The notes under the pieces are model-generated. The model did not search any database. It was not told the origin of the DNA and saw only the letters and a program-made list of their open reading frames with translations. Below, piece by piece: positions 1-17,951 of a DNA stretch of 64,000 nt. The stretch comes from Candidatus Micrarchaeia archaeon (GTDB lineage: Archaea; Micrarchaeota; Micrarchaeia; Burarchaeales; JACRGF01): the NCBI GenBank assembly GCA_038890815.1, contig JAWAFC010000003.1:575-64574 (forward strand), written 5' to 3'. A program made the translations under genes and the position numbers. The stretch's first letter is position 1. Each line of letters opens with the position of its first letter.

Positions 1-2345
1 ATTGGGCGCCCTTGTTTCCCTATCGAGGGCGTACCGCCCCAGCCAAACTATCCATCTGCTGCTGTCCTTGTGACAGTTAGACACAATGCAGCCTTTGAGT
101 GGTGTTACACTTTCGCCTATCCGCAACCCGAAAGCTGCGGCATCAACGGCTCCCACTTACGCTCCGCAAAGGCAACATTGCATCAACAGCAGACTATAGT
201 AAAGCTCCACGGGGTCTTCGTTTCCCCCTAGGAGTCCTCGGCATCTTCACCGAGCAGTAAGTTCACCAGGTCCCGGGTAGGGACAGTGGGACGCTCGTTA
301 CGCCCTTCATGCAAGTCACCAATTAAGCGACGAGGTATTACGCTACCTCAAGAGGGTCAGAGTTACCCCCGCTCTTTGCCGGCGCTTCGCTCCCTTGGAA
401 GGGAGTTTGACGTACCGGTAGTGAGCAGGCGTCGCCCCCCATACTAGGCCTTTCGACTTAGCGGGGAGCTGTGTTTTTGGTAAACAGTCGGCGTCCCCTT
501 GTCACTGCGACCTGCAGTTGCACCTTGCGGCACAACCGCAGGCAAGGCTTCTCCCGAAGTTACGCCTCCAACTTGCCGAATTCCCTTACCCGAGTTCCCC
601 TGCCACGCCTTGGCTTTTTCTGCCAGGGGCACCTGTACTGGTTCTAGGTACGGGCTCGCGGGATCGTTCCCGGCTCTCTTTTCACGGGCTCAGGGGATTG
701 ACGGAACCTCCTTTCGAAGGCCTTCCTGCAGTTGAACAGCTTCTCCTCATAACGAGCCTCCGCTGTGCTGCTGCAGTTAAATGGGCTCTCGCCCACTCCG
801 CCTACCCCCAAGCGTCAAGAGCCGGGCATGTGTTGCCACGCCTACCCGCGAGGCACAGGAATTTTAACCTGTTTCCCTTTCGTCTCCGAGTAATTGGCTG
901 GAGACTTAGGACCGGCTTACTCTTGGCTGACGAACGTTGCCAAGAAACCCGTGCCCTATCCGGCGTTCAGGATTCTCACCTGAATTCGCTGCTACTAATA
1001 CCAGGATATTCATTCCACGCCGCTCCACGGGACCTCACGGCCCCGCTTCTGCGCAGCGCGGACGCCCTCCTACCAGATGACGAGCACAGCTCGTCCTCCG
1101 GGGTCTCGGCGGCTGGCTTAGCCCCGTACATCTTCGGAGCGTGCGTTCTCGGCTGGTCCGCTATTACGCGTTGTTTAAAGGATGGCTGCTTCTAAGCCTA
1201 CCTCCCAGCTGTCTGGGAACGGGCGCTCCTTGTGGATTAGCACTTAGCCAGCTCTTAGGGGCCTTAACCTCGGTCTCGGTCGTTCCCGTCCCGGCCCGCT
1301 AGCTTACCCAGCGGAGCCCTACTCCTGCCTTCTACGGCGCGCACAGATTCGGAGTTTGAGAGGATGGCGGTCCCTTTCGGAACCATTCCACCCAATCAGT
1401 GCTCTACCCCGTGCGCTGCCTCTGGCAGAGCCATCCTGAGGGATGCTTCGGAGGGGACCCGCTATCGCCAAGTTCGATTGGACTTTCACCCCTAAACGTG
1501 GGTCACCCGAGCGGATATACCAGCACCGGTTGCGGGCCTCCACCATCCGGAAGGACGGCTTCGCCCTGCCCACGCTTAGATCACATTGGCTTCGGGTCTC
1601 CAGGAAGTGACTGGCCGCGCTTTCGCACGGCGCCCCTCGCGCTTGCGCGCTGCGGGCTATCGCTTTCGCTACGGCTTTCGCCTCGCCACTTCCAGGAACT
1701 CCCTGGCTCTTGCTTCAAGAAGAACGACGCAACACTGGTTGGTGCGCATCGCTCCCACGCTCTCGCGAGGTTGCTTTTGCGCACGGCATTCCTTTCGCGC
1801 TGCGTCGAACTGTCGCCATCCAGTTTCGGGCTCTTTTAACTCCCCTCCCGGGGTGCTTTTCAGCTTTCGCTCGCGCTACTTGTGCGCTATCGGTCTCGGG
1901 TTATATTTAGGGTTGGAGGTTGCTCCCCCCATTTTCGCGCCCAAAACTCGATGGACGCTACTCTGCGCGCGCCCTCTCCCCTCTCCCTGCCTACGAGGCT
2001 ATCACTCTGTATCGCGGGGCTTTCCAGCCCACTTCGACAGAGTTTGGGGAATGAGTTGGCGCGCACCACATCTTACCCCCGGTTGCCCGGAGGAATTCGG
2101 TTTGCCCTGTGCGGCTTTCAATCGCCTTTACTCACCGCATCCCAATTGGTTTCTTCTCCTGCGGGTACTAAGATGTTTCAATTCCCCGCGTAGCTGCGTG
2201 TTCCCACGCAATCGGCAATCCCGGGTTCAAAGGCTGCATGCGCCTACCCCGGGCTTATCGCAGCTTGCCACGGCCTTAGGCTACCCGAGCCAAGCCGTCC
2301 ACTGGATGGCTTAATCGCTCGTGTGTAGATGCCTTTGGTTGTCCC
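1..2345 (-). rRNA. 23S rRNA, partial (5' ~2.3 kb; 3' end lies beyond the window start)
   Basis: The reverse complement carries conserved 23S blocks. GGAAACGAAGACCCCGTGGAGCTTTACTATAG (E. coli ~2060-2090 region) lies at ~170-200. The 5'-domain block GCCGTGGCAAGCTGCGATAAGCC lies near 2290-2330. The six-frame ORFs inside this region are spurious. Confidence 0.88.
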
Positions 2346-2632: not shown

Positions 2633-3053
2633 ATGCTTCAAGGAACGAGAGACTTTTGCAGGAGCGTCCGCGAGCGCCTTGCACATCGTGACTCTTCCAA
2701 ATGGAAGAGTCAAAGGAGGTGATCTATCCGCAGGTTCCCCTACGGATACCTTGTTACGACTTAGCCCTCCTCACGAAACTCCGGCTCGACACTGGCAATA
2801 ACCAGCGCCTCATCGGAGCCTCGCTTGGATGACTTGACGGGCGGTGTGTGCAAGGAGCGGGGACGTATTCGCCGCTCGATGTTGACAAGCGACTACTAGG
2901 GATTCCAGCTTCATGAGGGCGGGTTTCAGCCCTCAATCCGAACTTAGGCCGAGTTTCCCCCCCATTTCCAGTTAGAAAATGGGTTTAGGGGATTAGCTTC
3001 GCCTCTCGGCGTCGCAACCCATTGTCTCGGCCATTGTATGCCACGTGTGGCCT

Positions 3054-3084
<31 letters not shown>

Positions 3085-3131
3085 CCCACTCCTTCCTCGG
3101 TTTTAACAACCGCGGTCCCCACAGAGTGCCC

Positions 3132-3671
3132 TCACCCCGGAGGATGAGGTAGCAACTGTGGGCGTGGGTCTCGCTCGTTTCCGGGCCACAGAGCCTTACA
3201 GACAGAATGTCTGCAAAAAGGAAGGATGAAAGATGCAAACGCGCGCGATGGCCAAACGAACAGTCTGCGCCTCACGCGCCGAGTTCTGAAACCGAGGCGA
3301 TTCAGCAGAAATTCATCCTCGCTGTCCGCGCGCGTCAGAAAGGGGAGGCCCTTCTCCGCGCCGCCACAGGCATCAAACCAGCCCGCGATGTATGCGGCAC
3401 TCTTGGCATTTTTCCTCGAAAATAGCCGCAGCCTCTCCCGCTCGCACTCCTGGAAGAATGCGCGTAGCCTGCTGTGATAGAAGAAAACCTTCTGCCCGCG
3501 GAGCTGTAGCCTGTCGGCAGTGGTGAGCTTCTGCGCGAGAACCTCGCGGATGAAGATCTCCGCTAGCTCGCCGCGTGCGGCAATGCCGACTCCCTCTGAA
3601 GTTGCTCTGGCCTTCCACATTCCAAGGATGTGGGCAAGAGCTGGGCTGAGCCTGAGCTTCATGCGCCTCAT
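3132..3671 (-). CDS. LAGLIDADG-family homing endonuclease (intron-encoded; the reading frame continues 16 codons into the downstream 16S exon)
   Basis: A 179-aa ORF with the motif AAYIAGWFDACGG near residue 92 and a degenerate first motif (HILGMWKARATSEGVG) near residue 15. The size and two-motif layout resemble I-DmoI and I-PorI type enzymes. Confidence 0.6.
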   Translation of the reverse strand: MRRMKLRLSPALAHILGMWKARATSEGVGIAARGELAEIFIREVLAQKLTTADRLQLRGQKVFFYHSRLRAFFQECERERLRLFSRKNAKSAAYIAGWFDACGGAEKGLPFLTRADSEDEFLLNRLGFRTRRVRRRLFVWPSRAFASFILPFCRHSVCKALWPGNERDPRPQLLPHPPG

Positions 3672-3704
3672 TCCTCATTTATTAATAATAGGGCTCTGCG
3701 GCTT
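3181..3704 (-). mobile_element. Archaeal rRNA intron inside 16S (between GTTAAGTCCGGT and AACGAGCGAGACCC, E. coli ~1090-1100), carrying a homing endonuclease ORF
   Basis: About 520 nt interrupt two conserved 16S blocks that are normally contiguous. The intron is AT-richer than the flanking rRNA and contains a LAGLIDADG ORF on the same strand. Confidence 0.75.
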
Positions 3705-3851
3705 ACCGGACTTAACCGGACAGTTCACACCACGAGCTGACGATGGCCATGCACCACCTCTCGGCTCGTCTGGCAAGGTCTTCAGCCTGGCCTTCATACT
3801 GCCGTCGCTCCCAGTAATGTTCCCGGCGTTGAATCCAATTGAACCGCAGCA

Positions 3852-3895
<44 letters not shown>

Positions 3896-4078
3896 CCTTG
3901 CGGCCGTACTCCCCAGGTGGCAGACTTAACACTTACGCTACGGCACTGCACCGGCTCTAAGCCGGTGCAACACCTCAGTCTGCATCATTTACTGCTAGGG
4001 CTACTCGGGTATCTAATCCGATTCGTTCTCCTAGCCTTCGTCCCTCACTGTCGGACGCGTTTTGGTCGAGCGCCTTTT

Positions 4079-4128
4079 GTGGAACCTTTTTTCGTCAACG
4101 TTTTTTCGTATCGACGAAAAAAGGTTGC
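4079..4128 (-). other. AT-rich ~50-nt palindromic hairpin insertion in 16S between CCAGTGGCG and AAGGCG (E. coli ~720; h22/h23 region); possible mini-intron or expansion segment
   Basis: The 16S-sense sequence CAACCTTTTTTCGTCGATACGAAAAAACGTTGACGAAAAAAGGTTCCACA has 14-bp inverted repeats (AACCTTTTTTCGTC / GACGAAAAAAGGTT). It also has a 3-nt bulge (CGC) four bp from the helix base. The equivalent archaeal 16S region normally has no insertion. Confidence 0.5.
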
Positions 4129-5107
4129 GCCACTGGTGGTCCTCACAGGATTAACGGATTTTACCCCTACCCCGTGAGTACCCTCGACCTCCCCCGCTCC
4201 CAAGCCTGCCAGTATTCCCTGCGCGCGCTGAGGTTAAGCCCCAGCATTTCACAGGGAACTTAACAGGCCAGCTACGGACTCTTTAAACCCAATATTCGTG
4301 GGCACCACTTGTGTTGCCGGTATTACCGCGGCGGCTGGCACCGGTCTTACCCAACACTTATTCAGCGAGTTGTTTGGACTCGCTAAAAGCCGAGCGCGTA
4401 GCCCGGCACTCCGAGTTCCCTCGTCACGCTTGCGCGCATTGCGAAGGTTTCGCGCCTGCTGCATCCCGTAGGACTAGGGCCCTTGGACCGGGCTGACCAC
4501 CTGCGAAGCTGGTCATCCCGTTTGTCTCAGTGCCCTTCTCGGGGCTCCAACTCCCATTGCCCCCACCGATTATCGGCTTGGTGAGCCGTTACCTCACCAA
4601 CAACCTAATCGGCCGCAGTCTCATCCTGGGGCGGACGCGCTCCAATTCGCGCGCCTTTTGAGTCGCGGGGGAGTTCCACCTCCCGCGGCCTGCCGGGGGT
4701 TAGCCACACTTTCGCGTGGTTATCCCCGTCCCCAGGGTAGATTGACTACGTGTTACTGAGCCGTACGCCGCCCGCCCAAGTGGGCGAGCAGACTTGCATG
4801 GCTTAGTCGAACTCGGATAGCAGTGCCCTCCAGCGGGATCAACTGGAGTTTGGACTGCCGTTCTGACAGTCCGCACACGCAGGAGTACCACCGCTTAGCG
4901 GTGGAAGCACTCACGATGCTCCTCTTGCCGTCTCTCGCCATTCCTTGAAGCCCAAGTCCAACCCGAATTACCTCGGGTTGCCATCGCGAAACCGAGCCGC
5001 TCGAAGGTGTACGCTGCAGTGGAAGGCAAACTTCATCGCCGCGAACTTAGAATTCGCGCTTCATCCAGCCGGGACTGCAGCCTCTCGGTAAGCTCGATTT
5101 TTGAGCA

Positions 5108-5153: not shown

Positions 5154-8100
5154 TCAACTCTGTGGAGAGGGGGAGCTACTCTCCTGCAGTTGTTTCATTC
5201 CCTCTATTATCTCATCAATATCATCTTTAATTACACCTATGCGTCTCAATGTTATTTCCTTGTCAGACCTCGAGCTGTCTGCAATATCATTTTTTATCAC
5301 ATCGGCTGTTGAGGAAAGCATTTCGAGAGCTTTAATATGTACTTTGATTTGCTCCTTGAGATCCCCTGGAAGCTGCACATGGGCGAAATAAGCATTCCTG
5401 TAGTTAGCCAGAAGTTTATCGAGCCCTTCCTCTTTTCCGCTGACTGTTTTCATTGCCTCTACTCCCGCATCGGCTGACCCGAAACCGGCCAGCACTTTTT
5501 CTTCCAGGCTCCGCAGCTCGCCCGTTATCCGCTCCTCTGATGCGCTGTCATGCGCTGCCTTAAACAGCGCTTCCCGCTGCTCCTCTGTGGACAGCACGCC
5601 GAGTGAGAAGAGCTTTCCGCCAAGCACATAGGCGCTCGCATCGTTACTATCCATGAAATCCCGCTGGTTGGCCTCCCAGCCTCCCAATGATGAGCGTGCC
5701 AGGTTTGCCTGGTTCTGAAGCAATGCAATCTTTCCCTCGAGTTCATTCAGCTCTTCCTTCACGGCATTCAGCCTTCTCACTTTTTCCTTGTACGCAAGAT
5801 AGTCCTCGGGCAGAGAAATCTCGTATTTAAATTTATCCTCGTATTTACCGCCGTATTTCTCGATGAGCTTTCTCTCGGCCTCCTCAATTTCATGCTCGTA
5901 TTTTTGTATGAGATCCTTCAACTTGTTTATCCGACCGCTTGTTTCATCAACTTTCTCGTCCAACTCCTTCCACTCCTTGTAACTCTTTTCTATGGCCGTG
6001 CCATTCTTTTTGAAGAGAAAGTCGCCTATCTCAATCGCGGCTTGGAGATACGGCATGCCTGAGATGGCTGATGGTAATGCGCTGGCGCGCTCAAATGCAT
6101 CTTTTTTGGCTTCGAGATTTTCTTGTGCATTGACTAACTCTAAATTGGCTTTTGCCGCGGCCTCCATAGATAAGGCGAGCTCATTGAATTTCTTTATTTC
6201 AGGAGGGGGCGACTCGCCCTCGAATATTATGGTGCCGTCGGCATTGTATTGAAGTTTTATGTTATTTTTTATAGCATAGTCGACAACGTCCGCGTACGCA
6301 TTCTCGAAGGCCTCGCGCTCTTTTTTTGAAAGTATTGCCAGCTGTTTTTCATAGTTTTTCTCTGCGGCATCCAGCCTGTCGCGCGCCAGCCTGTACTCCG
6401 CCTCTGCTTTCACAAGATCCAACGCCTCACCAATACCCTTAGCGGCATTCAGCTTCTCCAAGCCGCTTTTGACGGCTTCTTTGTTGTTATTATAGTCGGA
6501 GACGAGAGCGTTTGCCTTTTCTACAACATCTTTTGGCACTTCGGCGAGCTTTATGCTACCATCTTCGAAGCTCACCTGAAAGCCGTGCTTCGCCGCGAGC
6601 TCGAACAGCTGCTCTCGCGCGCTGGACATTTTTGAATAAGCATCCTTGATATCGGCCATGAGCCGGTTAGCATCTTCCTCGGCTTCACGCGTAAGTTTGG
6701 CGTTCCAGAAGTTGTCATTGAAAGTTTCGCACAACGCGAGGACTTCGTCCTGCTCGCGTTTCATCACATTTTTTTCTTTCATGTCCTTTTCCAAAGCCTC
6801 GCGATCAATATGGCCAGCAAGGGGACCCTCTGTGATGAATTTCAGCGAAATGCCGAGTTTTTTTGCAAGCTTTTCCAGCTTTTCTTTCGCTTCATCAGCC
6901 TTTTTCTGATACTCTTTGCTTCCCGGCTGTTCCTTTATTGTGCGCTCGAGCCGAGCAAATACAATGGCCTCTTCCAGCGCCGGAATGCGTGGGTCGTCTG
7001 GATTTTCCGCTCTGAGCCTGTTGAGCTCTGCTTCCATCTTATCCAATTTCGAGGTGATAGCATCGTTCAACCCTGCCATAAAGCTGCCCGTGGCAGGAGC
7101 AATCCCGCTGTCCCTCATACCCGTGTGCATGAGCAGCTGCGCCCTGCCGAGTTTGAGGAGTACTAACGATTGGTTTATCGCGCTCAATCCGTAGGCAAGA
7201 GCGTGAAGCCACAGCGGCCCGGCCGCTTTCTCCTTCGCAAACTCAGCATACTTGGCCTCCCACGTATCAAGTGTTTTAACTATCCAGCCTGCTGCCGGGC
7301 CTACTATCGGGATTTTCCTGGCAACCTCGGCACGTGTGAGCGGGCCACGGGCACCCCTTACGAGTCTCACCCTACCTGTGATAGCACCAGCAAGGTATGC
7401 AGGATTAGTATAAAGTGCGGCATAACGCACAGCCTTGCGCGAGTACTTCGCCGTCTGCTCAACTGCCACCATCCCCCATCCAAACGGGGTGTATTTGGCG
7501 AACCAGGTGTATTTGCCCTTTTCGTCGCGCAGCATTCTGGCAAACTGTCCACGGAGCTTCCCAAACGGTTTGCCTTGATACGAGGACCATCTGCCCGACA
7601 ACATCAGCATCAGCGGACTGAATTTTTTCCCTATGGCCTCTTGCTCTTGCTGGAAAAGTTGCTCCCTTTGCTTAATTGCTACATCAAGCTGCTTCTTGAG
7701 CGTAATGACTTCTTGTGTGTTCTTTGCATTCTTTATCTTAGTTTTCAGCTCTTTTATCGTGTTATTCAATTCCCTTCCTCTCTCGCTTCTGTTCACCCTT
7801 GCGGCCGCAGCCACCGCTATGCCGGATTGGATGAGTGCTGCGATGGAGGCGGTTGATATCATCATTGCTTGAGGCCCTCTCAGCCGCACCCTCGGGGGCG
7901 ACACGCGCGCGGTGAGGTCGAGCACGCCGAATGGATTGCGCCCGCTGGCGAACATCGCGGCGACCAAAAAGCTGACGATCAGGATGAGGGGGAAGCATTG
8001 GGTGAGGGTGAAGAGCGGCGGGATGCCGCCGGTGAGGCCCGAGGAGGAGTTGCTGGGCTGGAAGAGGTTATCGCCCTTGAAGAATGCGACCACCTCAAAG

Positions 8101-8810
8101 CTCTCGCCCTGCCCGGGCAGTGCGTACGAAACGAAGGCATATCCCTTCTCATCGGTGATCTGGCTTATGGGCGTTTCGCCGGGCAGGCAGCATCCCGTGC
8201 GGCAGCTCAGCTCATCAAGCCCGCACGCTCTCTGGCCCACAAAGCCGCAGTCCTCCACGGGCACATCGACCTCGATCTCGCGTGTCTGGCAGCAGAATGC
8301 GCAGTTTTCAAAGCTTGTGCCGGGCGGGCAGCCGTTTGGATAAGCGCCCTTGAAAGCGCCGCTGGCATTACAGCAGATGGCAGTGGATGGCGGGCAGGGC
8401 GCGCTGCCCGCAGGACATGCGCCGGCTATCTTTTTTATCCAAGGAGTGGCTGAATAGGCATCCTCGCAGCAGCCGACTCCCTTGCTGCACTTGTGCGTGC
8501 CGGCGGGGCATTGAGCCTCGTCTGGGTCGGCATAGCAGCAGCCCGTGAGGTTTGCGCAGAAGCGATAGAGCGTGGGGTCGCCGCACGAGCTCGCGCACCT
8601 CTGAAAATAGATTGTCCTCTGTGGAAGGGGGATGAGCATGCGGCGTACGGCATCGAGCGCGGCCAGGCGCGCCCTCGCCTCGAGCGTGCCCTGCTCCGGG
8701 TTTGTTTTTGTGGTGAGGGTGATGACTGTGGGTGATTTGGGGGCTGGGCAACCTTCCTCCTGCGCCCACGCCACAGAAGCCAACAGGAGGGCGAGCAAGA
8801 GCGCGCGCAT
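5154..8810 (-). CDS. Large membrane-anchored protein: signal peptide, ~270-aa cysteine-rich ectodomain, TM segment(s), and a ~900-aa K/E-rich coiled-coil region
   Basis: A 1218-aa ORF. The N-terminus MRALLLALLLASVAWAQEEG is followed by ~40 Cys in CC/CxC clusters (GCCYADPDEAQCPAGTHKC, AICCNASG, NCAFCCQ, CRTGCCLPGET). The hydrophobic stretches PLFTLTQCFPLILIVSFLVAAMFA and ISTASIAALIQSGIAVAAAA follow. The remainder is heptad-rich (EKLEKLAKKLG and similar). Confidence 0.75.
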   Translation of the reverse strand: MRALLLALLLASVAWAQEEGCPAPKSPTVITLTTKTNPEQGTLEARARLAALDAVRRMLIPLPQRTIYFQRCASSCGDPTLYRFCANLTGCCYADPDEAQCPAGTHKCSKGVGCCEDAYSATPWIKKIAGACPAGSAPCPPSTAICCNASGAFKGAYPNGCPPGTSFENCAFCCQTREIEVDVPVEDCGFVGQRACGLDELSCRTGCCLPGETPISQITDEKGYAFVSYALPGQGESFEVVAFFKGDNLFQPSNSSSGLTGGIPPLFTLTQCFPLILIVSFLVAAMFASGRNPFGVLDLTARVSPPRVRLRGPQAMMISTASIAALIQSGIAVAAAARVNRSERGRELNNTIKELKTKIKNAKNTQEVITLKKQLDVAIKQREQLFQQEQEAIGKKFSPLMLMLSGRWSSYQGKPFGKLRGQFARMLRDEKGKYTWFAKYTPFGWGMVAVEQTAKYSRKAVRYAALYTNPAYLAGAITGRVRLVRGARGPLTRAEVARKIPIVGPAAGWIVKTLDTWEAKYAEFAKEKAAGPLWLHALAYGLSAINQSLVLLKLGRAQLLMHTGMRDSGIAPATGSFMAGLNDAITSKLDKMEAELNRLRAENPDDPRIPALEEAIVFARLERTIKEQPGSKEYQKKADEAKEKLEKLAKKLGISLKFITEGPLAGHIDREALEKDMKEKNVMKREQDEVLALCETFNDNFWNAKLTREAEEDANRLMADIKDAYSKMSSAREQLFELAAKHGFQVSFEDGSIKLAEVPKDVVEKANALVSDYNNNKEAVKSGLEKLNAAKGIGEALDLVKAEAEYRLARDRLDAAEKNYEKQLAILSKKEREAFENAYADVVDYAIKNNIKLQYNADGTIIFEGESPPPEIKKFNELALSMEAAAKANLELVNAQENLEAKKDAFERASALPSAISGMPYLQAAIEIGDFLFKKNGTAIEKSYKEWKELDEKVDETSGRINKLKDLIQKYEHEIEEAERKLIEKYGGKYEDKFKYEISLPEDYLAYKEKVRRLNAVKEELNELEGKIALLQNQANLARSSLGGWEANQRDFMDSNDASAYVLGGKLFSLGVLSTEEQREALFKAAHDSASEERITGELRSLEEKVLAGFGSADAGVEAMKTVSGKEEGLDKLLANYRNAYFAHVQLPGDLKEQIKVHIKALEMLSSTADVIKNDIADSSRSDKEITLRRIGVIKDDIDEIIEGMKQLQESSSPSPQS

Positions 8811-8860: not shown

Positions 8861-10078
8861 GTGCGGCGTGTGGTCTTGTTGCTTCTGCTCGCAGGCTGTA
8901 TCTCCCAGCCTCCCGCCAACATCACGCTAGCCAACGTCACCCTGCCCGCCAACATCACACAGGCGAACATCACTCCCGTGAATCTCACGCAGCCAAGCGC
9001 GGAGAACATAACGCTCCCAATCGTAACCATCTCTCCATGCAACAGAATTTCCGCCCAGCCCGAGAGGGATGCCTGCGTGGCCGAGGTCGCGCTGAGGCTG
9101 AAAGAGGCGGGGCTGTGCGCGCAGGTGGCCGCGCGCGATAGAAGGTTTGCCTGCGCGCTGTCTGTGGCGAGCGCCACGCGGAATGCCAGCGCCTGCCTTC
9201 AGCTCGGTGAGGAGGCGGGCAGGTGTGTGCTGTTCTTGGTGCCGAACATCGGAGGTGAGGGCTGTGCGCTCATCAGCGGGCCTGAGCGGGAGATGTGCGA
9301 GGGCCTGGCGGCCTCCCTGAGAGGCGCTGAGGCGTGCGTTGCGCTTGCCGGCAGGGCGAGGGAGGTGTGCGCAAGGCAGGTGGCCCAGAATACGGGTAAT
9401 ACGAGCGTGTGCGAGCTGCTGGCTGGCGCGGCGAGGGAGGGGTGTAGTGCCGGCGCGCGGAGAGCAATTGGGATTAACATTAGCTGGAGCTCCTGCGCCG
9501 ATGCCCCGCAGGCAGCAAGGGATGGATGTTATTACCAGCAGGGAGTGGCGCGCGGCGATCCGGCCCTCTGCATGAGGATATCGAATGCAGATATGAGGGA
9601 GGGCTGCCTTGTGGTGCAGGACGATGGGGCGCTGAGCGCAGCCGCGCTCAATCAATCAAATCCATCGGCATTGTACTGCAAGTACATTCGAGCGCCAGAG
9701 ATGCGGGATGCCTGTTATGAGTGGGTGGCCATCTACCTGCTCGATCAGGGCCCGTGCGCTTTTGTCTCGCACAAGGACATCAAGGATGCCTGCTTTGCCT
9801 TCTCAAAGGCAAGCGATGCCCTTGAGCGAATTGTGGCCTTTGGCAATCCGGAAGGATGCGCGGTGCTGAATTTTCTCGGGGAGAAGGATGCCTGCTACGC
9901 CCGCATCGCTGCGGCCAAAGGAGACGCAACAATATGCGAAAAAATCACAAAAGAGCCCATGAGGGTGGAGTGCGCGCTGTCCCTGCTGTCGCAGCAGAAT
10001 GCCGCGACAGTGGCCGCGATATGCGAGGGGCTGACCAATGAGGAGGTGAAGGCGAATTGCACACACGCGCTTGGCTGA
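8861..10078 (+). CDS. Secreted/lipoprotein-like glycoprotein: N-terminal NxT sequon-rich stalk followed by ~12 Cys-pair repeats
   Basis: A 405-aa ORF starting MRRVVLLLLLAGC. It carries NITLANVTLPANITQANITPVNLTQPSAENITL and then repeats of (R/K)(D/E)xC-13..25-C, for example ERDACVAEVALRLKEAGLC, PEREMCEGLAASLRGAEAC and EMRDACYEWVAIYLLDQGPC. Confidence 0.7.
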   Translation: MRRVVLLLLLAGCISQPPANITLANVTLPANITQANITPVNLTQPSAENITLPIVTISPCNRISAQPERDACVAEVALRLKEAGLCAQVAARDRRFACALSVASATRNASACLQLGEEAGRCVLFLVPNIGGEGCALISGPEREMCEGLAASLRGAEACVALAGRAREVCARQVAQNTGNTSVCELLAGAAREGCSAGARRAIGINISWSSCADAPQAARDGCYYQQGVARGDPALCMRISNADMREGCLVVQDDGALSAAALNQSNPSALYCKYIRAPEMRDACYEWVAIYLLDQGPCAFVSHKDIKDACFAFSKASDALERIVAFGNPEGCAVLNFLGEKDACYARIAAAKGDATICEKITKEPMRVECALSLLSQQNAATVAAICEGLTNEEVKANCTHALG

Positions 10079-11829
10079 TTTTGCTTGCGGTGATGGGGCT
10101 GGCCATCGCCCAGCCGACATGCAGCGATCCGGCAACTGACACAAGGTATGGAGTGTGTTTCTCGCCTGGCTCGGGCACGGAGGAGCCATTTGAGTGCCCT
10201 AATGTCACGGATAAGTGGGGGAACAAACACAACAATTCGCAGTGGCTCAAGCAGACTCCCCTCGGGGATTTCGCCCTGTCGTGCGATGACCTCAATCCAT
10301 GCACTGAGGATTTTTTCGATGAGGACAAGGGGAAATGCATGTGCAGAGCAGTGCAGGATGGCTTCTATGGGGAGTGCGCGGGGCCGGATATGAGCGCGAG
10401 CAATGCGGCCTGCACCGAAAAGCGTTGCATTGGGGGAGTTTGCAAAACAATCACCGTTAAGGGAATAACCCCCATGTGCTCGGCAAGTGCTACCTACGAT
10501 TCACCTTGCAAGATAAATGTGTGCGAGAGCGGCGTCTGCACCGGGCCGAGGATTATTGGAGTGAATTTTGATTCGCAACGGGCGTGCTGCGGCAACGGCG
10601 AGCTGGAAGGCGATGAGAAGGATTGGTGCTGTGCAGACCTGCAGGCGACCGGCACGGGCCTGCCTGAGGGAAAGGAGTGCATCGGTGGCATAATGGTCAC
10701 AAAGAGCTATCTGGAGAGGGACCTTCAGCCCTTCATCAGGGCATTTCCATCGTGGGGGCCCGTCATCGTGCTCGCCCTTCTTATAGGCTATTTCCTCGCC
10801 GCGCTGGGCTACATGGCCGCGAGCTTTTTCAGGATGCCCGAGCTCGAGGCATGGGCAAAGAACGAGCTGGCTGAGGTGAGCGCAAGCGCGTTTTTTGCGG
10901 CCAATGCGATTTTTTTCATCGGGCTGATTGATGCGGCAGCTGTTGAGCTCATTGGGAAAGATTACTTCACCGTGGCGGCGAGCTTCCTCAACCTCCTGGC
11001 GGGCGAGACAGCGGCCATCATGGCCGAGCTGACGAGGGCGCAGTTCATTCTCGGATTCGGCTCAATGCTTGGAGTGCAGTTTGGTGTGCCTATATTTATT
11101 GTGATCGGATTCCTCGTGCCGGGCATGACGGCCTATCCTCTCGTGGGGGCTCGCATCATCACCACGGCGCTCGCCACCTATGGGAATGTCGCCACAATGA
11201 GCCTGATGAGCGCGCTCGGCATGGCCGTACTGCTGGAGTTCATAAACAGGTATGCGCTGACCGTCATACTGCCCGCTGGCATTGTGTTGAGGTGCTTCAC
11301 GCTGACGAGGCGGCTGGGGGCAACGCTCATGGCCATCGCAGTGGGCCTGTACGTGTTTTACCCACTGTCGCTGGCATGGAACGGCATGATATACGGCAAT
11401 GTGGAGAGGCCCAGCACGGGCGGCGTTTCGTTCATGAGCATCATAAACAACATCGTCGATCCCACGCCATTCCTTGAGATATTCGGCGGGCCCCCATTCA
11501 GGAGGTTCTGCGTGCACTGGTATGACTGGGTATGGTGCTGGTGGTATGCCATCATATGGTGGATCATCAACATGGTCATCGCATTCATCCAGCTTACCAT
11601 AGCGCTGGCCATGCTGTATTATGTTGGGCTTGCGACCACGCCCATAGGCGGCATCGGCGTGCTTGCATACGACTATTTTGTCGGTCTCATACCATCCATG
11701 ATTAGAACGATGGCGGGGGCATTCCTCTTCCCACTCATAGATCTAATTATAGTGGTTACGGCCATACGCTCGATATCGCCCGCCATTGGCGGGGAAACGA
11801 GGATAACGGGGCTGGTGGAGTTCATATGA
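10057..11829 (+). CDS. Membrane protein, paralog 1 of a six-member family, with an extra N-terminal ~200-aa cysteine-rich (EGF-like CxC) ectodomain
   Basis: A 590-aa ORF with a signal peptide and Cys-rich region. It then carries the family motifs GYMAASFFRMPELEAWAKNELAEV and LPAGIVLRCFTLTRRLGATLMAIAVGLYVFYP, plus the C-tail GETRITGLVEFI. Confidence 0.75.
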   Translation: MHTRAWLILLAVMGLAIAQPTCSDPATDTRYGVCFSPGSGTEEPFECPNVTDKWGNKHNNSQWLKQTPLGDFALSCDDLNPCTEDFFDEDKGKCMCRAVQDGFYGECAGPDMSASNAACTEKRCIGGVCKTITVKGITPMCSASATYDSPCKINVCESGVCTGPRIIGVNFDSQRACCGNGELEGDEKDWCCADLQATGTGLPEGKECIGGIMVTKSYLERDLQPFIRAFPSWGPVIVLALLIGYFLAALGYMAASFFRMPELEAWAKNELAEVSASAFFAANAIFFIGLIDAAAVELIGKDYFTVAASFLNLLAGETAAIMAELTRAQFILGFGSMLGVQFGVPIFIVIGFLVPGMTAYPLVGARIITTALATYGNVATMSLMSALGMAVLLEFINRYALTVILPAGIVLRCFTLTRRLGATLMAIAVGLYVFYPLSLAWNGMIYGNVERPSTGGVSFMSIINNIVDPTPFLEIFGGPPFRRFCVHWYDWVWCWWYAIIWWIINMVIAFIQLTIALAMLYYVGLATTPIGGIGVLAYDYFVGLIPSMIRTMAGAFLFPLIDLIIVVTAIRSISPAIGGETRITGLVEFI

Positions 11830-12803
11830 GGGCTTGGCTCATCGTGCTTGCACTCCTCCTTGCCGGCTGCACAGCCGAGCCACTCGCCGAGCTGCCTGGA
11901 TGCATCGCCCTGAGCGTGCGTGAGGAGCCGGAGCTGTATGGGTTGGTATTCGTGGCGCTGGTGGGCGTGCTGTTTGCCATCGCCATCGGCTACATGGCAG
12001 CCCAGCTTTTCAGGAGGCCTGACTGGGAAGCCATGGTGAGAGTGGAGCTCACCCAGACACTGCTGGGTGCGAGCATGATTTTCATCGCTGTGTGGCTGAG
12101 CGCATTCTCCTGCTCGATAAGCTATGAGCTTGCCGGGGGGGATACATTTGCCAAGGCAAACGCATACCTCGCAGGACTGACTTACGGGGAAATGATTCCG
12201 GCCATCATGAGGCTGTACGACAAGGCATGGCAGGCGGAGAAGCTGACGGCCTGGATCATTGGCATTTCCTCCTGCATGAGCGGCGTGTGTTTCCAGCCCT
12301 ATGCAGGCTACAGCATGGTTAGCTACAACCTCGGAACTGTGGCCGGCCTGCTCGCTCCCATCGTCACTTCGCTCATGGTGCAGATGCTCGCCCTCCAATT
12401 CATACAGCAGTTCGCATTTGTTTATCTGCTTCCGCTCGGCCTGCTGCTCAAGGCCGTGCCCTTCACAAGGGAAGCCGGCGCATTTCTCATCGCGCTCGCC
12501 ATCGGGCTGTATGTGGTCCTCCCGCTCACCTATATTTTCAATGCGAGAGTCATGGCGGACATCGGGCCGAGCATCACTGCGGGGAGCTACTGCGCGCTGA
12601 AGGCCGGGCCGGGTGACAAGCCAGGCGGGCAGGCGCTCGACAGCACGCTGGAGGGCGTTGGTGGGTTGTGCTCCACGGTCATTGCAGTTGTCGGGAAGAT
12701 TCTTCCGCAGGCAGTTTTCCTGCCCGCCCTCAACATAGTCATAACGCTCGCCTTTACAAGGACGATGGCGAGGATATTCACGCGGGATTACATGTTGGGG
12801 TAA
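11826..12803 (+). CDS. Membrane protein, paralog 2 (FtsX/MacB-like topology; novel family)
   Basis: A 325-aa ORF with an ATGA overlap to the upstream gene. Its motifs are IGYMAAQLFRRPDWEAMVRVELTQ and LPLGLLLKAVPFTREAGAFLIALAIGLYVVLP. Confidence 0.75.
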   Translation: MRAWLIVLALLLAGCTAEPLAELPGCIALSVREEPELYGLVFVALVGVLFAIAIGYMAAQLFRRPDWEAMVRVELTQTLLGASMIFIAVWLSAFSCSISYELAGGDTFAKANAYLAGLTYGEMIPAIMRLYDKAWQAEKLTAWIIGISSCMSGVCFQPYAGYSMVSYNLGTVAGLLAPIVTSLMVQMLALQFIQQFAFVYLLPLGLLLKAVPFTREAGAFLIALAIGLYVVLPLTYIFNARVMADIGPSITAGSYCALKAGPGDKPGGQALDSTLEGVGGLCSTVIAVVGKILPQAVFLPALNIVITLAFTRTMARIFTRDYMLG

Positions 12804-12807
12804 TGGC

Positions 12808-14025
12808 ATGCGGAAGATGATACACTTTGTGCTGCTTTGGCTTCTGCTTGCCAACAGCGTGGCTGCCGAACAGCAGTGTGAGGGCACGCGCATGTGCACG
12901 CTGTTCGCCAACTGGGCGCCCATCACTGCCATGGTCATACTCATCTCTCTCTTCGTTGTGTCGCTGGCCTTCATGGTGGGCAAGGGCCTCGGCATGCGGG
13001 ACATTGAGATGTTCGCCAAGGAGGAGCTGTACCAGTGCATTGCCAGCGCACTCATCCTCGGTGTGTTCATCAGTTTTGCGGCGCTCCTTGAGAGCACCTC
13101 GCAGCAGCTGGCCGGTGACATACTGACGGCCGGCACTCAGGGCACGACATTCGGCACACCAATCACAATGCGCTGGGAGTACACGGGCGACAGGAGCATG
13201 CGCTGGAGGACGACGGGCGCGCTCACCATAGAGAGATGCGGAGCTAACGACCCATTTCCCGATAAGAAATGCCACTTTTATTTGGCCAGGGCATTTTTGG
13301 GCAGCACGTTCGAAAAGCTGTCTGGGCAGGCGAGGGAGGTCGTAAAGCTGTATGGGCTCAGCATACTGTTTGACACCACATCCGTAAGCCTGGGGCTGCT
13401 TATCTTCGGACCCGTGTTTGGATTGGGGTTTGGCGTACCCCTTTTCGGTGGCAACAGCCTCCTGTACGAAACGCTCGAAACCATCTTCTCGGTCATGGCG
13501 AAGACGATGCTGCTGCTGAAATTCCAGGAGGTATCGCTCATGTACATCGAGAGGGGAATTTTCCCAGGCCTCATGATTGCCGGCCTCGTCTTCCGCTCCA
13601 TCTGGTTCATGCGGAAGCTCGGTGGGCTGCTGCTCGCGCTCGCCATCGGGCTATACACAATATTGCCGTTCATGTACATACTCAGCTGGTATACGATGGA
13701 TGCCGCACAGGCGAGGTATGATGTGAGCGCGCTGACCACCGCGCTTCAGAATAGGCAGAGCGCAGCGCAGGCCGTGATGGAGGAGCGGGGGCGTGATGTG
13801 GGGATAGGGCTATTTTTCCACCATGAGTACAGTGTGCTATTCACACACTACAGGTCTGATGGCAGCGTTGAGTACTATGGCATGCTCGATCTGGCCGGCA
13901 GGTATGCGCTCATAGCCATGGCAACGCCCACCATCGCGCTGTTCGTGCTGCTTGGTTTCGTGAGAGAACTGTCCGGCTTCCTGGGAGGGGACATTGAGAT
14001 CGCCGGACTGACGAGGATATTGTGA
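12808..14025 (+). CDS. Membrane protein, paralog 3
   Basis: A 405-aa ORF with the motifs LAFMVGKGLGMRDIEMFAKEELYQ and FPGLMIAGLVFRSIWFMRKLGGLLLALAIGLYTILP, and the C-tail GGDIEIAGLTRIL. Confidence 0.75.
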   Translation: MRKMIHFVLLWLLLANSVAAEQQCEGTRMCTLFANWAPITAMVILISLFVVSLAFMVGKGLGMRDIEMFAKEELYQCIASALILGVFISFAALLESTSQQLAGDILTAGTQGTTFGTPITMRWEYTGDRSMRWRTTGALTIERCGANDPFPDKKCHFYLARAFLGSTFEKLSGQAREVVKLYGLSILFDTTSVSLGLLIFGPVFGLGFGVPLFGGNSLLYETLETIFSVMAKTMLLLKFQEVSLMYIERGIFPGLMIAGLVFRSIWFMRKLGGLLLALAIGLYTILPFMYILSWYTMDAAQARYDVSALTTALQNRQSAAQAVMEERGRDVGIGLFFHHEYSVLFTHYRSDGSVEYYGMLDLAGRYALIAMATPTIALFVLLGFVRELSGFLGGDIEIAGLTRIL

Positions 14026-15212
14026 TGGCAACGAGAGCTGTGCTCAGCGTGCTGTTGCTTTTGGCTATGGGAGGGGCTGCCTGGGCGCAGGCAGCATGGG
14101 CTCCTGGCTGGATGAGCGTGGCTTTCCTGGCGCTGTTGGTTTCCTATTTCATGATAGGACTGGCCTTCATGTATGCCATAGGCTTCCAGGACGCCAGGAT
14201 GGAGGCCTGGTGCAGGCACGAGTTTTACCAGAACAGCGCCACGGCTGTTTTGCTGGGCATGCTCGTGGGGGTGAGCGCGCTGCTCGACAACACGCTGTAT
14301 CCGGCGTTCTGGAGCACGTCAATACTCAATCCTGAAAGCCAGAGGGCCAGCGCGAGCGTCTGCCCCAGCTCCACGCTGTCGGTGCCTGGGTTTGGGCTCT
14401 CGGTGACGCTCAACTCGCTGCGGTACAGCCCGCCAAGGGGAGGAAGGGGATTTGGAAACATACAAAATCATGTTGTGGGATATGTGGGGTGCCTTAGAAC
14501 GGCGGTCACAAAATACCTACTCGAGCTAAATCTCGGCGGTGTGTTCTTCGGCTTCATCTCCTCGCTGATGTTCAGTTTCGAGTTTGTGGAAATCAAGTTT
14601 GGCATGCTCAACATAATGCCGGGCGTTGTGATGAAGCCGGTGACGGACATGCTCGGCTACATAAACACGCTCGTGGCCATGCTCTTCCTGCAGCTCAGGG
14701 TGCAGGAGCTTGTGCTGACTTTCGCCCGCGATTATGCATTCTCTTTCCTGCTGCCTCTCGGCGTTGCCCTCAGGGCATTCACTTTCACGCGCGGGGCGGG
14801 TGGGGCGCTCATCGCCATCGCTGTCGGATTCTACATCGTGCTGCCCATCACCTATCTCTTCCAAGAGGAGATAACTGCTGATTACTGCGCGCGCCATGAC
14901 TGCCAGCGCTCGCTGCTCGCCAGATTTGGGTATGCGGGCAATCTGTATGACATCATTGTGGGGCTCATGGCAAGCGCACAAAGCGGCGGCATTGGCAGAG
15001 GGCTCACTGTGGCAGGCTCATTTGGGCAGGGCTACTCGCTGTCCGAGCTGATGTCGCTCAATGGACCTTTCGGGCCCGTGATATTCGTAGCCGGCATATC
15101 GGGGGCCGTGCTGCCCGCGCTCGGGCTCATCACGACATTCATATTTATGAAGTCCTTCGCGAACCTCATGGGAAGTGATGTGGACTTCAGCACGCTGATA
15201 AAAATTGTTTAG
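14022..15212 (+). CDS. Membrane protein, paralog 4
   Basis: A 396-aa ORF with an ATGA overlap. Its motifs are LAFMYAIGFQDARMEAWCRHEFYQ and LPLGVALRAFTFTRGAGGALIAIAVGFYIVLP, and the C-tail is GSDVDFSTLIKIV. Confidence 0.75.
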   Translation: MMATRAVLSVLLLLAMGGAAWAQAAWAPGWMSVAFLALLVSYFMIGLAFMYAIGFQDARMEAWCRHEFYQNSATAVLLGMLVGVSALLDNTLYPAFWSTSILNPESQRASASVCPSSTLSVPGFGLSVTLNSLRYSPPRGGRGFGNIQNHVVGYVGCLRTAVTKYLLELNLGGVFFGFISSLMFSFEFVEIKFGMLNIMPGVVMKPVTDMLGYINTLVAMLFLQLRVQELVLTFARDYAFSFLLPLGVALRAFTFTRGAGGALIAIAVGFYIVLPITYLFQEEITADYCARHDCQRSLLARFGYAGNLYDIIVGLMASAQSGGIGRGLTVAGSFGQGYSLSELMSLNGPFGPVIFVAGISGAVLPALGLITTFIFMKSFANLMGSDVDFSTLIKIV

Positions 15213-15220
15213 GTGGAAAC

Positions 15221-16258
15221 GTGAGCGTGTGTGCTGACCTGGCGAACTGGCCATCCGCCTGGTACACGGTTGCGGCCATCGGCATCGTGGCATCGGGCGC
15301 CGTCATTGGGTTGGTCTACATGATTGGGGTGACGCTCGGCAATCCCGGGCTCACCGCGCGCGCAAAGAACGAGATCTACCAAGTGGTGGCAACGCTGTGC
15401 ATGCTTGCCCTTGCCGTTGGGTTTGTGGGATTCGCCTGCACGGCCGATCTCAGCGGTTTCGGAGTGAGCGGAACGATCTATTCCGCCGCCGAGGCCTACC
15501 TCTCGTGGCTCGCCAGCCGCTCCATGTACGTGCTGGAGAGAATGATGCACCTGGCAGGGACGTGGGGATTTCTGGGCAGCATCGGCATGGGGATCACGAT
15601 AAGCGGCATAGGCTTCTCTTTCAACCCTTTCTCGGGCCTTTTTGGGCTTGTCAACATACTCAACATATTCATGTCGACAGCGCTCATCCTGTCGCTCACA
15701 ACGGCCGCGCAGTATGTGGTGTTCAAGTTCGCGCTTGAGGGCTTTCTGGGCTACCTCCTGCCTGTTGGTCTGGTGTGCAGGTGCTTCCCATTCACCCGCG
15801 ACTTCGGGGGCGCGCTGATTGCGCTCAGCGTAGGCTTCTCGCTGTTCTATCCATTCCTGTTCGCAGTGGACTGGGCGCTGGTGGGGCAGCCAACCAAGAG
15901 TACAATTGGAGGAGGGGGAGGAGATTTTGACAGGTGGGCGGTGGTGGATACGCTTGTGGGGTGGTATGTCTCCTTTGTAGTCGAGACTGTTGGTATCGTT
16001 ACCTTCTTTGCCGTCGTTGGAGTTCCGCTCATAATCCCGCCCATCCCGATTGTGAGCATACTGAAAATGCTCATGGAAATCTCCATCATGTTCCTTGATT
16101 CGATGATGCAGAGCGCGCTTATGCCGATAGGCGAAATACTTGTGGGCGGGCTTTTCCTGCCCGCGCTGAACGGCATCATACTTGTGGCTGTGGTGAGAGA
16201 TCTGTCGCGCGTGCTCGGCGAGGAGGTTGACATAACGACGCTGACGAGGATGGTTTGA
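15221..16258 (+). CDS. Membrane protein, paralog 5
   Basis: A 345-aa ORF with the motifs LVYMIGVTLGNPGLTARAKNEIYQ and LPVGLVCRCFPFTRDFGGALIALSVGFSLFYP, and the C-tail GEEVDITTLTRMV. Confidence 0.75.
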   Translation: MSVCADLANWPSAWYTVAAIGIVASGAVIGLVYMIGVTLGNPGLTARAKNEIYQVVATLCMLALAVGFVGFACTADLSGFGVSGTIYSAAEAYLSWLASRSMYVLERMMHLAGTWGFLGSIGMGITISGIGFSFNPFSGLFGLVNILNIFMSTALILSLTTAAQYVVFKFALEGFLGYLLPVGLVCRCFPFTRDFGGALIALSVGFSLFYPFLFAVDWALVGQPTKSTIGGGGGDFDRWAVVDTLVGWYVSFVVETVGIVTFFAVVGVPLIIPPIPIVSILKMLMEISIMFLDSMMQSALMPIGEILVGGLFLPALNGIILVAVVRDLSRVLGEEVDITTLTRMV

Positions 16259-17304: not shown

Positions 17305-17951
17305 TGCGCGCGTTCATCAAAAGAAACTTTCGGGCAGCGCTGGCGGCTGCGGCGTTCACTCTCGCCATACTGCTGGCCGCGCTTGCCTTTGTTGCCACAC
17401 CTCCACCATCCCAGCCTCCCCTCCCAGCGCAGGCTGAAGAAGTCCAGCCATCGGTGTGGGAGCCATTCCTGCCGCAGAACTGTAGCCCTTTCTTTGCCCC
17501 GACGACTGCCTCGTATGTCTATGCGGTGCGGTTCTCTGCTGGGGGCACTGACATAACAGGGCAGGTAAGCCATGAGCTCATATCGAGCAATGACTCATAC
17601 ACCATGAGGGATGTGCTGACAACGCCATTCGGAAAGTCTGCAATAGTTTGGGAGCTTGCGCCTGACCTGAGCTGCCGCCGGGTGCGCGCGAGCGCGGAGA
17701 TGAGCGGCATGCAGAGGGTGGACCGAGAGCTTCCGTGCGTGCCGCCCATTCCGTTTTTTGGGGCACCCTGCAGGGAGGAGATGGTGCTGAAGGGACTTAC
17801 AAACGCCAGCACGCCTTTCGGCACGATACCGGCAAAGGTTTATCATGCTACATCATCCAATGCTACATACATTGTGGCGAACAACATCGATGTGCCTCTC
17901 AAATTCGCCATTGGCAACATGCAGGGGGAGCTGATAAGATATGAAGAGTAG
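17301..17951 (+). CDS. Small N-terminally anchored or secreted protein of the same operon
   Basis: A 216-aa ORF with an ATGA overlap upstream and an 11-nt overlap with the downstream giant gene. It has a hydrophobic N-terminus followed by a Pro-rich linker. Confidence 0.55.
   Translation: MMRAFIKRNFRAALAAAAFTLAILLAALAFVATPPPSQPPLPAQAEEVQPSVWEPFLPQNCSPFFAPTTASYVYAVRFSAGGTDITGQVSHELISSNDSYTMRDVLTTPFGKSAIVWELAPDLSCRRVRASAEMSGMQRVDRELPCVPPIPFFGAPCREEMVLKGLTNASTPFGTIPAKVYHATSSNATYIVANNIDVPLKFAIGNMQGELIRYEE

Follow-up and report, generated by a model that had tools for sequence, protein, structure and literature searches.

We examined a short hairpin that interrupts the 16S rRNA gene in a stretch of DNA from a Candidatus Micrarchaeia archaeon (hereafter the window, i.e., the whole 64-kb stretch that was analysed), and asked whether it is an intron removed from the precursor RNA, a helix extension retained in the ribosome, or a transposable insertion. 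The original prediction for this DNA had placed these readings side by side, as a mini-intron at an undescribed site, an expansion segment and a MITE-like insertion. The comparisons described here indicate that the insert is very probably an ORF-less intron of the bulge-helix-bulge (BHB) type, from a family with copies at different conserved 16S sites.

The 16S rRNA gene and the position of the insert

The host 16S rRNA gene was located on the negative strand at 2714..4849 (Rfam RF01959, 1335 bits over model positions 1-1478), in the same rRNA operon as a 23S gene (2326..1, negative strand) that is cut by the window end; this was the only rRNA operon seen. A protein gene just upstream of the 16S gene (5154-8810, negative strand) encodes a product identical to NCBI MEM4389371.1, a protein of a Candidatus Micrarchaeia archaeon MAG. 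The 16S gene measures 2136 nt, as compared with the 1478 positions of the archaeal SSU model, and presented four inserts relative to Micrarchaeota-like 16S genes, three of them ORF-less and one with an ORF. Once these four BHB-type inserts (see below) are removed, 1491 nt are left.

The insert under study appeared in the alignment with the archaeal SSU model at about model position 669, where the gene has 53 nt and the consensus two, the extra nucleotides falling in the terminal loop of helix 23a. Its boundary is ambiguous from the alignment alone because of an A-run at the 3' end of the insert; a BHB scan, together with the excision that restores the consensus, delimited a 51-nt ORF-less candidate mini-intron, CAACCUUUUUUCGUCGAUACGAAAAAACGUUGACGAAAAAAGGUUCCACAA, at 4077..4127 on the negative strand. 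The insert of about 50 nt predicted at 4079-4128 is therefore real, with its unit corrected to these 51 nt. Its GC content was 37% versus 59% for the exons, and its fold with the flanks had a z of -4.4, a stability that none of 200 shuffles equalled (z = -3.1 when more of the surrounding sequence was included), in agreement with the expected AT-rich, ORF-less hairpin in a GC-rich rRNA. A second copy of the insert with up to three mismatches was not found in the 64-kb window.

By alignment, the junction falls between positions 726 and 727 of a 1541-nt E. coli rrs copy, which we take to be G727/A728 in the standard numbering, given the +1 offset seen at the 785-805 primer landmark. The G/A junction at 727/728 marks the first position of the GAAG loop of helix 23a, a loop with hardly any variation in the archaeal 16S genes retrieved (among the matches listed). 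The original placement near E. coli position 720 in a normally invariant part of the gene was thus right as to conservation and a few nucleotides off as to the site.

Bulge-helix-bulge anatomy of the insert

We followed the '3-4-3 hBHBh'' motif definition (PMC3239211), with the strand order 5'-helix, 4-nt central helix strand, 3-nt bulge, helix-3', and the rule that the cut falls after the second bulge nucleotide, which was derived from the description of the tRNA BHB, whose central helix includes anticodon nucleotides 34-35 (PMC4090602). Read as RNA, the region has the order ...CCACCA GUGG CG / C AACCUUUUUUCGUCGAU ACGAAAAAAC GUUGACGAAAAAAGGUU CCAC AA / AAGGCGCUCGACC..., and the full 3-4-3 core is present (all coordinates on the negative strand). 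[quoted passage not shown] This helix lies between the 5' bulge C-G-C (4127..4129; predicted 5' cut G4128/C4127) and the 3' bulge A-A-A (4076..4078; predicted 3' cut A4077/A4076). In the minimum free energy (MFE) folds the 5' arm AACCUUUUUUCGUCGAU (4110..4126) pairs with the distal 3' arm GUUGACGAAAAAAGGUU (4083..4099) in an inner helix of 17 bp with two G.U pairs, by far the longest among the small inserts in the BHB scan. The unconstrained MFE fold recovers GUGG/CCAC, the CGC bulge and the 17-bp helix.

The CGC bulge had been predicted four base pairs from the base of the stem, and GUGG/CCAC is indeed what lies between base and bulge; the stem itself had been put at 14 bp, which is too short. 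Only half of a relaxed BHB motif had been recognized, and the AAA bulge on the 3' strand completes the core. The outer exon-exon helix is weak: the exon A-G-G (4073..4075, negative strand), its 3' strand, lies opposite A4134-C4135-C4136, giving an A4134.A4075 mismatch and two G-C pairs, so the window motif is relaxed on its exon (3') side.

In silico excision of the 51 nt gives GUGGCG/AAGGCG, the consensus junction, which about 117 of the 119 archaeal 16S genes retrieved share (among the matches listed). The sequence also contains, as read directly, a proximal copy of the 3' arm, ACGAAAAAACGUUG (4096..4109, negative strand), which makes up a 14-nt tandem-like repeat with ACGAAAAAAGGUUC (4082-4095). 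This proximal copy is an alternative partner for the 5' arm (12 of 13 pairs), and their pairing would compete with the BHB conformer.

Other inserts in the same gene

The other three inserts, all on the negative strand, have 39 nt (4521..4483, central helix AGAC/GUCC, about E. coli 330/331), 525 nt (3703..3179, central helix CCGG/CCGG, about 1100/1101) and 30 nt (2984..2955, central helix CCCU/GGGG, about 1287/1288). Each of the four inserts, including that at 727/728, showed a 4-bp central helix (three of four pairs in one case), two A-rich bulges of 3 nt and, next to them, an inner helix, and the removal of each restores a consensus junction. The BHB scan is informative only when limited to alignment-defined inserts; run over the entire 16S gene as a generic scan, its loose thresholds gave hundreds of chance matches.

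The ORF of the 525-nt intron (3665..3210) had no match in Pfam, even at E <= 1, or in the PDB. By eye only, it contains a LAGLIDADG-like motif, YIAGWFDACGG.

Recurrence of inserts at site 727/728

A search of metagenome contigs with a pattern spanning the junction showed that 24 of them carry an insert at exactly GUGGCG/AAGGCG; a 25th pattern match (L124) was false and was discarded. At least two Aenigmatarchaeota MAGs (L060 and L115) also carry an insert at 727/728. They were found with a looser pattern for genome contigs, which ended in a bare GGCG after the gap and also matched ordinary 16S genes downstream. The occupied junctions comprise 17 distinct inserts of 25-51 nt, including that of the window (the 16 others have 25-50 nt). 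The carrier hosts are deeply divergent, with best matches at 70-80% identity to Aenigmatarchaeota and Nanopusillaceae in a limited reference set.

The interiors of these inserts are mostly unrelated, and yet one layout is common to all of them: a single nucleotide, then a hairpin, a 4-nt segment that can pair with GUGG, and two final nucleotides. The exon GUGG is invariant in all 17 carriers, and the 4-nt guides include CCAC, CCAU, UCAC, CUAC, UCAU and CUGU, among others. The central helix was complete in 13 of 17 inserts at register 0 versus 0-2 of 17 when the register was shifted by 1-4 nt either way. In an ungapped alignment of the insert ends, 91% of the cells were paired as compared with 38-54% in the slid registers, and 94% of the central-helix cells were paired across the 17 carriers. 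All ten inner-helix pairs tested had changes on both sides, and the variation in the central helix is one-sided, from G-C to G-U; none of 500 shuffles matched the observed covariation. In the 16 other carriers the outer helix has 3 bp (U-A, C-G and C-G, by way of U721), i.e., the strict hBHBh' form. In some of these carriers the MFE fold is displaced by one register or incorporates nucleotides of the bulges.

A search within the loci of the other carriers showed no paralogues of their 727 introns. We do not claim homology between the window insert and the AT-rich 727 introns of L125, L134 and L145, with which it has weak similarity (z = 1.7-5). Site 727/728 appears to be a recurrent site for 16S introns that had not been listed before, with occupants in many DPANN-like lineages.

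A close relative with an empty site

In the relative search, two genes upstream of the 16S gene matched only the source MAG and JGI Ga0137716_10008987 (hereafter L147). L147 was reached through a homologue of the upstream protein and has the same gene order as the window. The exons of its 16S fragment (1.8 kb) are 95.6% identical to the spliced window 16S over 890 nt. At the 727 site L147 has identical flanks, reads CCACCAGUGGCG/AAGGCGCUCGACC and has no insert, and this empty site is exactly the junction predicted from the BHB; the product predicted by in silico splicing of the window gene is thus the empty-site sequence of L147 too. The insert was also absent from four Micrarchaeota-like 16S genes among the matches listed (L027, L062, L083 and L089, the last one named Micrarchaeota in its record); the spliced window 16S is 79-81% identical to L083, L062 and L027. 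An alignment with relatives had been suggested originally to establish whether the segment is lineage-specific, and neither L147 nor these four genes carry it; the refuting outcome named there, a conserved helix extension in close relatives, was thus not observed.

L147 itself has at least six inserts within the first 890 exon nt, all with BHB geometry, and their removal restores consensus junctions. Two of them proved to be copies of the window intron. The first, CCCUUUUUCGUCGAUACGAAAAAGCGUUGACGGAAAAAGGCGCAA (45 nt, 15793..15837), is 41/45 identical to the window intron (z = 19) and follows GCGCGCAA, the GCAA loop of h15. The second, AACCCUUUUCCGCUCACGCGGAAAAGCGUUUACGGAAAAGAGUGCCUAA (49 nt, 15921..15969), is 36/48 identical to it (z = 10) and follows UUGGGUAA. 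The two L147 copies are 37/44 identical to each other, so that the three copies are 75-91% identical; against shuffles the copy pairs reached z = 10-19, and none of 500 shuffles scored as high. Counted from the 341F and 515F primer landmarks, the L147 copies lie at about E. coli 383/384 and 510/511.

The 383/384 copy forms the central helix GCGC/GCGC with bulges AAC and AAG, and the 510/511 copy forms GGGU/GCCU with bulges AAA and AAG. Excision of either one gives an uninterrupted sequence as in the window. The distribution is reciprocal: 383/384 and 510/511 are empty in the window, and 727/728 is empty in L147. These reciprocal filled and empty sites in 16S genes about 96% identical indicate that the element was gained or lost recently at three loci.

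The consistent difference among the copies lies in the 4 nt before the terminal AA (CCAC, GCGC and GCCU), and each of these guides is complementary to its local upstream exon (GUGG, GCGC and GGGU, respectively). The three-part layout, with a 5' arm and a duplicated 3' arm of about 14 nt, is conserved in all three copies, and where the 5' arm has changed from U to C, both copies of the 3' arm carry the matching A-to-G change. In the three sequences compared, this duplication may reflect selection for two alternative folds or shared ancestry.

No target-site duplication was found at any of the three sites. A search of the window, L147 and the other fetched sequences with nhmmer and a three-copy profile recovered no further copy, and a scan of viral contigs with a degenerate core pattern found no member of the family. 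Both L147 copies are inside its 16S fragment, so all known copies lie in 16S genes in a BHB context, and spread over several sites has been seen so far only in this Micrarchaeia pair. The evidence for movement consists of three copies in two genomes, with arms that are low-complexity A/U runs; on this basis the 51-nt insert most likely belongs to a homologous mini-intron family that has moved between 16S sites.

Alternative explanations

A lineage-specific extension of helix 23a, kept in the mature 16S rRNA and protruding from the 30S platform, would fit an insert placed at a hairpin tip, the usual location of expansion segments, and the very stable coaxial helix that it forms; unusual insertions are, moreover, known in DPANN and CPR rRNAs. 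However, the segment is missing from the closest relative, with identical flanks, and from the four other Micrarchaeota-like 16S genes, and the GAAG loop that it interrupts is nearly invariant among the archaeal matches listed. A retained extension also gives no reason for the fixed register of 1 nt, 4-nt guide and 2 nt in 17 unrelated sequences, or for a different exon-matched 4-mer at two other sites. We therefore regard an expansion segment, one of the readings offered originally, as improbable; the BHB register, the empty sites and the homologous copies point to a mobile mini-intron family. The long perfect helix could also suit a double-strand-specific nuclease that cuts the insert out without religation, leaving 16S rRNA fragments that stay joined through base pairs. 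Bacterial 23S intervening sequences are removed in this manner by RNase III, and fragmented rRNAs exist in other lineages. Yet conservation here is not limited to the helix but extends to features peculiar to the splicing endonuclease, namely bulges of 3 nt and a spacing of 4 bp. Ten such breaks per 16S gene would also be extreme. The products of BHB cleavage in archaea are, in addition, normally ligated by RtcB (PMC4496867), and we find excision without ligation very hard to accept.

We give least credit to an artefact, i.e., an assembly or foldback error, or to a generic MITE, a transposable hairpin that reached an rRNA gene by chance and inactivates this copy of it. In favor of these readings, the hairpin is an AT-rich palindrome and its family occupies several loci; moreover, the sequence comes from a MAG, and another assembly from that sample has a break within the 16S gene. 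Nevertheless, the junction is occupied in 26 independent contigs of other assemblies, and the interrupted 16S gene belongs to the only rRNA operon seen. Copies outside 16S were found neither in the 64-kb window nor in L147, the element lacks target-site duplications and has no terminal inverted repeats other than its hairpin, and every copy sits in the exact BHB register that restores the consensus. What holds of the MITE-like reading is a short, palindromic, ORF-less family at three loci; a generic insertion does not fit copies that are all in a 16S BHB context. The mini-intron reading agrees with the BHB anatomy, with the exact empty site of L147 and with the 16 independent inserts in the same register, and it is the one that we favor from these sequence comparisons.

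A proposal for splicing and spread

Under the mini-intron reading, the insert would be transcribed inside the pre-16S rRNA, where the CCAC at its 3' end would pair with the exon GUGG just upstream and the long hairpin would stack on this 4-bp helix. This would leave the 3-nt bulges C-G-C and A-A-A, on the 5' and 3' strands respectively, as targets for EndA, the splicing endonuclease of tRNA and rRNA, with a cut behind the second nucleotide of either bulge (G4128/C4127 and A4077/A4076). An RtcB-type ligase would then join the exons and restore the conserved GGCGAAGGCG hairpin loop of helix 23a, and the intron would be released, probably as a circle. With no homing endonuclease in the intron, the family would have come over evolutionary time to occupy 727/728, about 383/384 and about 510/511.

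We infer in vivo cleavage and ligation and the release of the intron, as well as the colonisation of new 16S sites by family members, from sequence. To our knowledge, BHB motifs are the only recognition element of the archaeal splicing endonuclease, which makes cleavage and ligation plausible, as does the fact that a 16S rRNA with four (at least six in L147) inserts at conserved positions would function only if they are removed. They are plausible also because a Micrarchaeum enzyme of the epsilon2 type cuts both kinds of motif: in Ca. Micrarchaeum acidiphilum ARMAN-2, tRNA introns lie at numerous unusual positions, some with strict and some with relaxed BHB motifs, and the epsilon2 splicing endonuclease of this archaeon cuts both in vitro (PMC3239211). 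Among the enzyme types, (alpha-beta)2 and epsilon2 cleave relaxed BHB substrates, whereas alpha4 and alpha2 do not (PMC3239211). An EndA gene or tRNA_int_endo domain was not found among the approximately 39 ORFs scanned in the 64-kb window. The nearest ORF-bearing intron is about 370 exon nt (about 374 bp of gene) away from the insert, so co-conversion is not an obvious explanation for its presence.

A more far-reaching proposal, which we think rather unlikely, is that the family is a self-propagating, protein-less RNA element that colonises sites in rRNA, and perhaps in tRNA, with RNA as the guide. The choice of a complementary exon segment would be made by the 4-nt guide together with the helix next to it, much as in the EBS/IBS pairing of group II reverse splicing; the host endonuclease and ligase would insert the intron into RNA, which would then be copied into DNA, and a change of four nucleotides would retarget the element. 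By means of its duplicated 3' arm the element could alternate between two conformations, a 'closed' hairpin and the fold that forms the BHB.

Comparison with known systems

The closest counterparts of the mini-intron described here are the short (<50 nt) hairpin BHB introns in the 16S genes of Thermoproteales, at loci 374, 548, 901, 978, 1093 and 1205 (Jay & Inskeep 2015, PMC4496867). Like these (e.g., Pog.S1205), the window insert is ORF-less, has tens of nucleotides and forms a single hairpin with a BHB at the junction. It likewise occupies a highly conserved 16S position, has a GC content below that of the host rRNA and occurs sporadically among relatives. Its host, however, is a DPANN archaeon (Micrarchaeia) and not a crenarchaeote. 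In addition, Thermoproteales introns at different 16S loci are less than 20% identical (PMC4496867), whereas here one element, 75-91% identical, was found at three 16S loci. Co-conversion was described for Pog.S1205/S1213 (PMC4496867); unlike that pair, the window insert has no homing-endonuclease intron within a few nucleotides.

As to the site, the 13 16S intron loci listed in PMC4496867 do not include 727/728, the nearest being '722', represented by two uncharacterised Caldiarchaeum introns. The site is probably undescribed, as had been suggested. In the literature searched there was no description of a 727/728 intron or of multi-locus rRNA mini-introns in DPANN.

Homologous introns at non-homologous positions of host RNA genes have a precedent in the tRNA introns of Thermoproteales. 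According to the account of Fujishima et al. (2010) in PMC4090602, nearly the same BHB introns were found in related genomes at different positions of different RNA genes, indicating recent intron gain by transposition; the BHB requirement defines the usable targets, and the mechanism is left unexplained in that account. Compared with the tRNA introns as summarised there, the family described here differs in occupying sites of one 16S gene, in its Micrarchaeia hosts, in its reciprocal empty sites and in its retargeted 4-nt segment. The ARMAN-2 introns belong to the same phylum-level lineage as the window; the substrates described there are tRNAs, with no rRNA mini-introns in that description.

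Expansion segments of CPR, DPANN and Asgard rRNAs are also extra helices in conserved rRNA genes, often at hairpin tips. They lie in variable regions, are retained and are common to relatives, in contrast with a segment that has splice-site geometry, interrupts an invariant loop and is absent in the nearest relative. MITEs share with the family a short, non-coding, palindromic and multi-copy nature and a presence/absence polymorphism between close genomes. The family departs from them in the lack of target-site duplications and of copies outside rRNA in the DNA available, in a 3' end tailored to each upstream exon, and in the RNA-level removal needed for the function of the host gene.

What appears to be new, then, is the presence of hairpin BHB introns in the 16S genes of Micrarchaeia and DPANN-like hosts, and a homologous mini-intron family at three 16S loci, each copy with an exon-matched guide; site 727/728 is probably new as well.

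Implications

For the spread of protein-less archaeal introns, the Thermoproteales tRNA introns are the only documented case. The pair formed by the window and L147 offers a compact, testable system, in which the copies of a 45-51-nt element, set in 16S genes about 96% identical, are distinguished essentially by the four nucleotides pairing with the exon. The intron density is extreme, with four in the window 16S gene and at least six in the first 890 exon nt of L147. Intron-rich 16S genes of 2.1 kb may be mishandled by assemblers, chimera filters and 16S classifiers, so such organisms are probably under-counted in surveys. If the introns are spliced, the endonuclease of these Micrarchaeia must process many relaxed BHB sites in rRNA, and not only those in tRNA.

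Probable introns in the 16S rRNA gene

Besides the 51-nt mini-intron, three more BHB-type introns were found in the 16S gene of the window, all on the negative strand: one of 39 nt at 4483-4521 (~E. coli 330/331), one of 525 nt at 3179-3703 (~1100/1101) and one of 30 nt at 2955-2984 (~1287/1288). The shortest presented a near-perfect 3-4-3 BHB (two 3-nt bulges flanking a 4-bp central helix), with CCCU/GGGG as the helix and AAA in both bulges. None of the three positions coincided with the 13 loci listed for Thermoproteales (Jay and Inskeep, 2015), the ~1100/1101 site being 7-8 nt away from locus 1093. The 525-nt intron contained a 151-codon ORF (3665..3210, negative strand) that had no match in Pfam or PDB; by eye, its segment YIAGWFDACGG reads as LAGLIDADG-like.

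Genomic context and assembly

Upstream of the 16S gene lie a very large ORF of 1218 aa (5154-8810, negative strand), seven ORFs in a row, each of 216-590 aa (8861-17951, positive strand), and a second very large ORF of 2345 aa (17941-24978, positive strand), all with no Pfam matches or only marginal ones. The 1218-aa gene and the seven-ORF run were syntenic in L147 (JGI Ga0137716_10008987), the closest relative, with 36-41% identity in the two genes compared (1218 aa and 405 aa); outside L147, they had almost no homologues among 5.8 billion proteins. The 387-nt 16S-23S spacer (2327-2713) held no tRNA, and ARAGORN, which would miss intron-disrupted tRNAs, reported no tRNA gene across the whole 64 kb.

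The sample of the window was also assembled independently (L148, Logan SRR27730023_40672). That contig breaks off after ~270 nt of the 16S gene and does not reach the first intron; its overlap with this gene corresponds to 4581-4849 of the window, with the 727 region outside. This break fits with short-read assemblies being disrupted at rRNA genes rich in introns. Separately, an archaeal-type 16S fragment (GACCACCGGUGGCGAAGGCG...) was seen in a 437-nt contig (PENC01000190.1) of a Streptomyces griseocarneus assembly, where it is probably a contamination.

Interruptions in other archaeal 16S genes

Across diverse DPANN-like archaea sampled by metagenomics, mini-introns recurred at the point where the 51-nt element is inserted, GUGGCG|AAGGCG (E. 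coli 727/728). The contigs in which this site is occupied (L121-L145 except L124, plus the Aenigmatarchaeota MAGs L060 and L115) yielded 16 distinct inserts, each 25-50 nt long. One of them, the 25-nt UAACUUAUUCAAAUUUGUUACAUAG, was identical in seven contigs.

Further interruptions were seen among the other archaeal 16S genes fetched. The Hadarchaeota MAG CAZMCI010000008.1 (L078) diverged directly after GGAUUAGAUAC (about position 1090, ~E. coli 795), L060 carried an insert of ~80 nt behind GUCACU (about 1500-1700, ~E. coli 1360-1370), and L115 presented, close to the 5' end (300-760), an insert with an ORF and a run of N.

Structure and turnover of the probable introns in the Micrarchaeia genes

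The 3' arm was a tandem-like duplicated unit of 14 nt in all three copies of the mini-intron family, located at 4082-4109 (negative strand) in the window and at 15811-15836 and 15941-15966 in L147. The 5' arm therefore has two alternative pairing partners, and its substitutions were compensated in both copies of the 3' arm.

The L147 16S fragment (14777-16552, the first 874 model positions) had six BHB-type introns, of 44 nt (15105-15148), 57 nt (15172-15228), 534 nt (15240-15773), 45 nt (15793-15837), 49 nt (15921-15969) and 157 nt (16255-16411). Because only the first of these six positions is also occupied in the window gene, intron content turns over fast between these ~96%-identical 16S genes.

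All ten introns of both genes ended in AA, so that their 3' bulges are AAA or AAG, and most of their 5' bulges were likewise A-rich; the final dinucleotide of the 727-site introns in other lineages was UA, AG, GA, AU or AC. The splicing endonuclease of this lineage may favour such ends, or the introns may share them by common ancestry.
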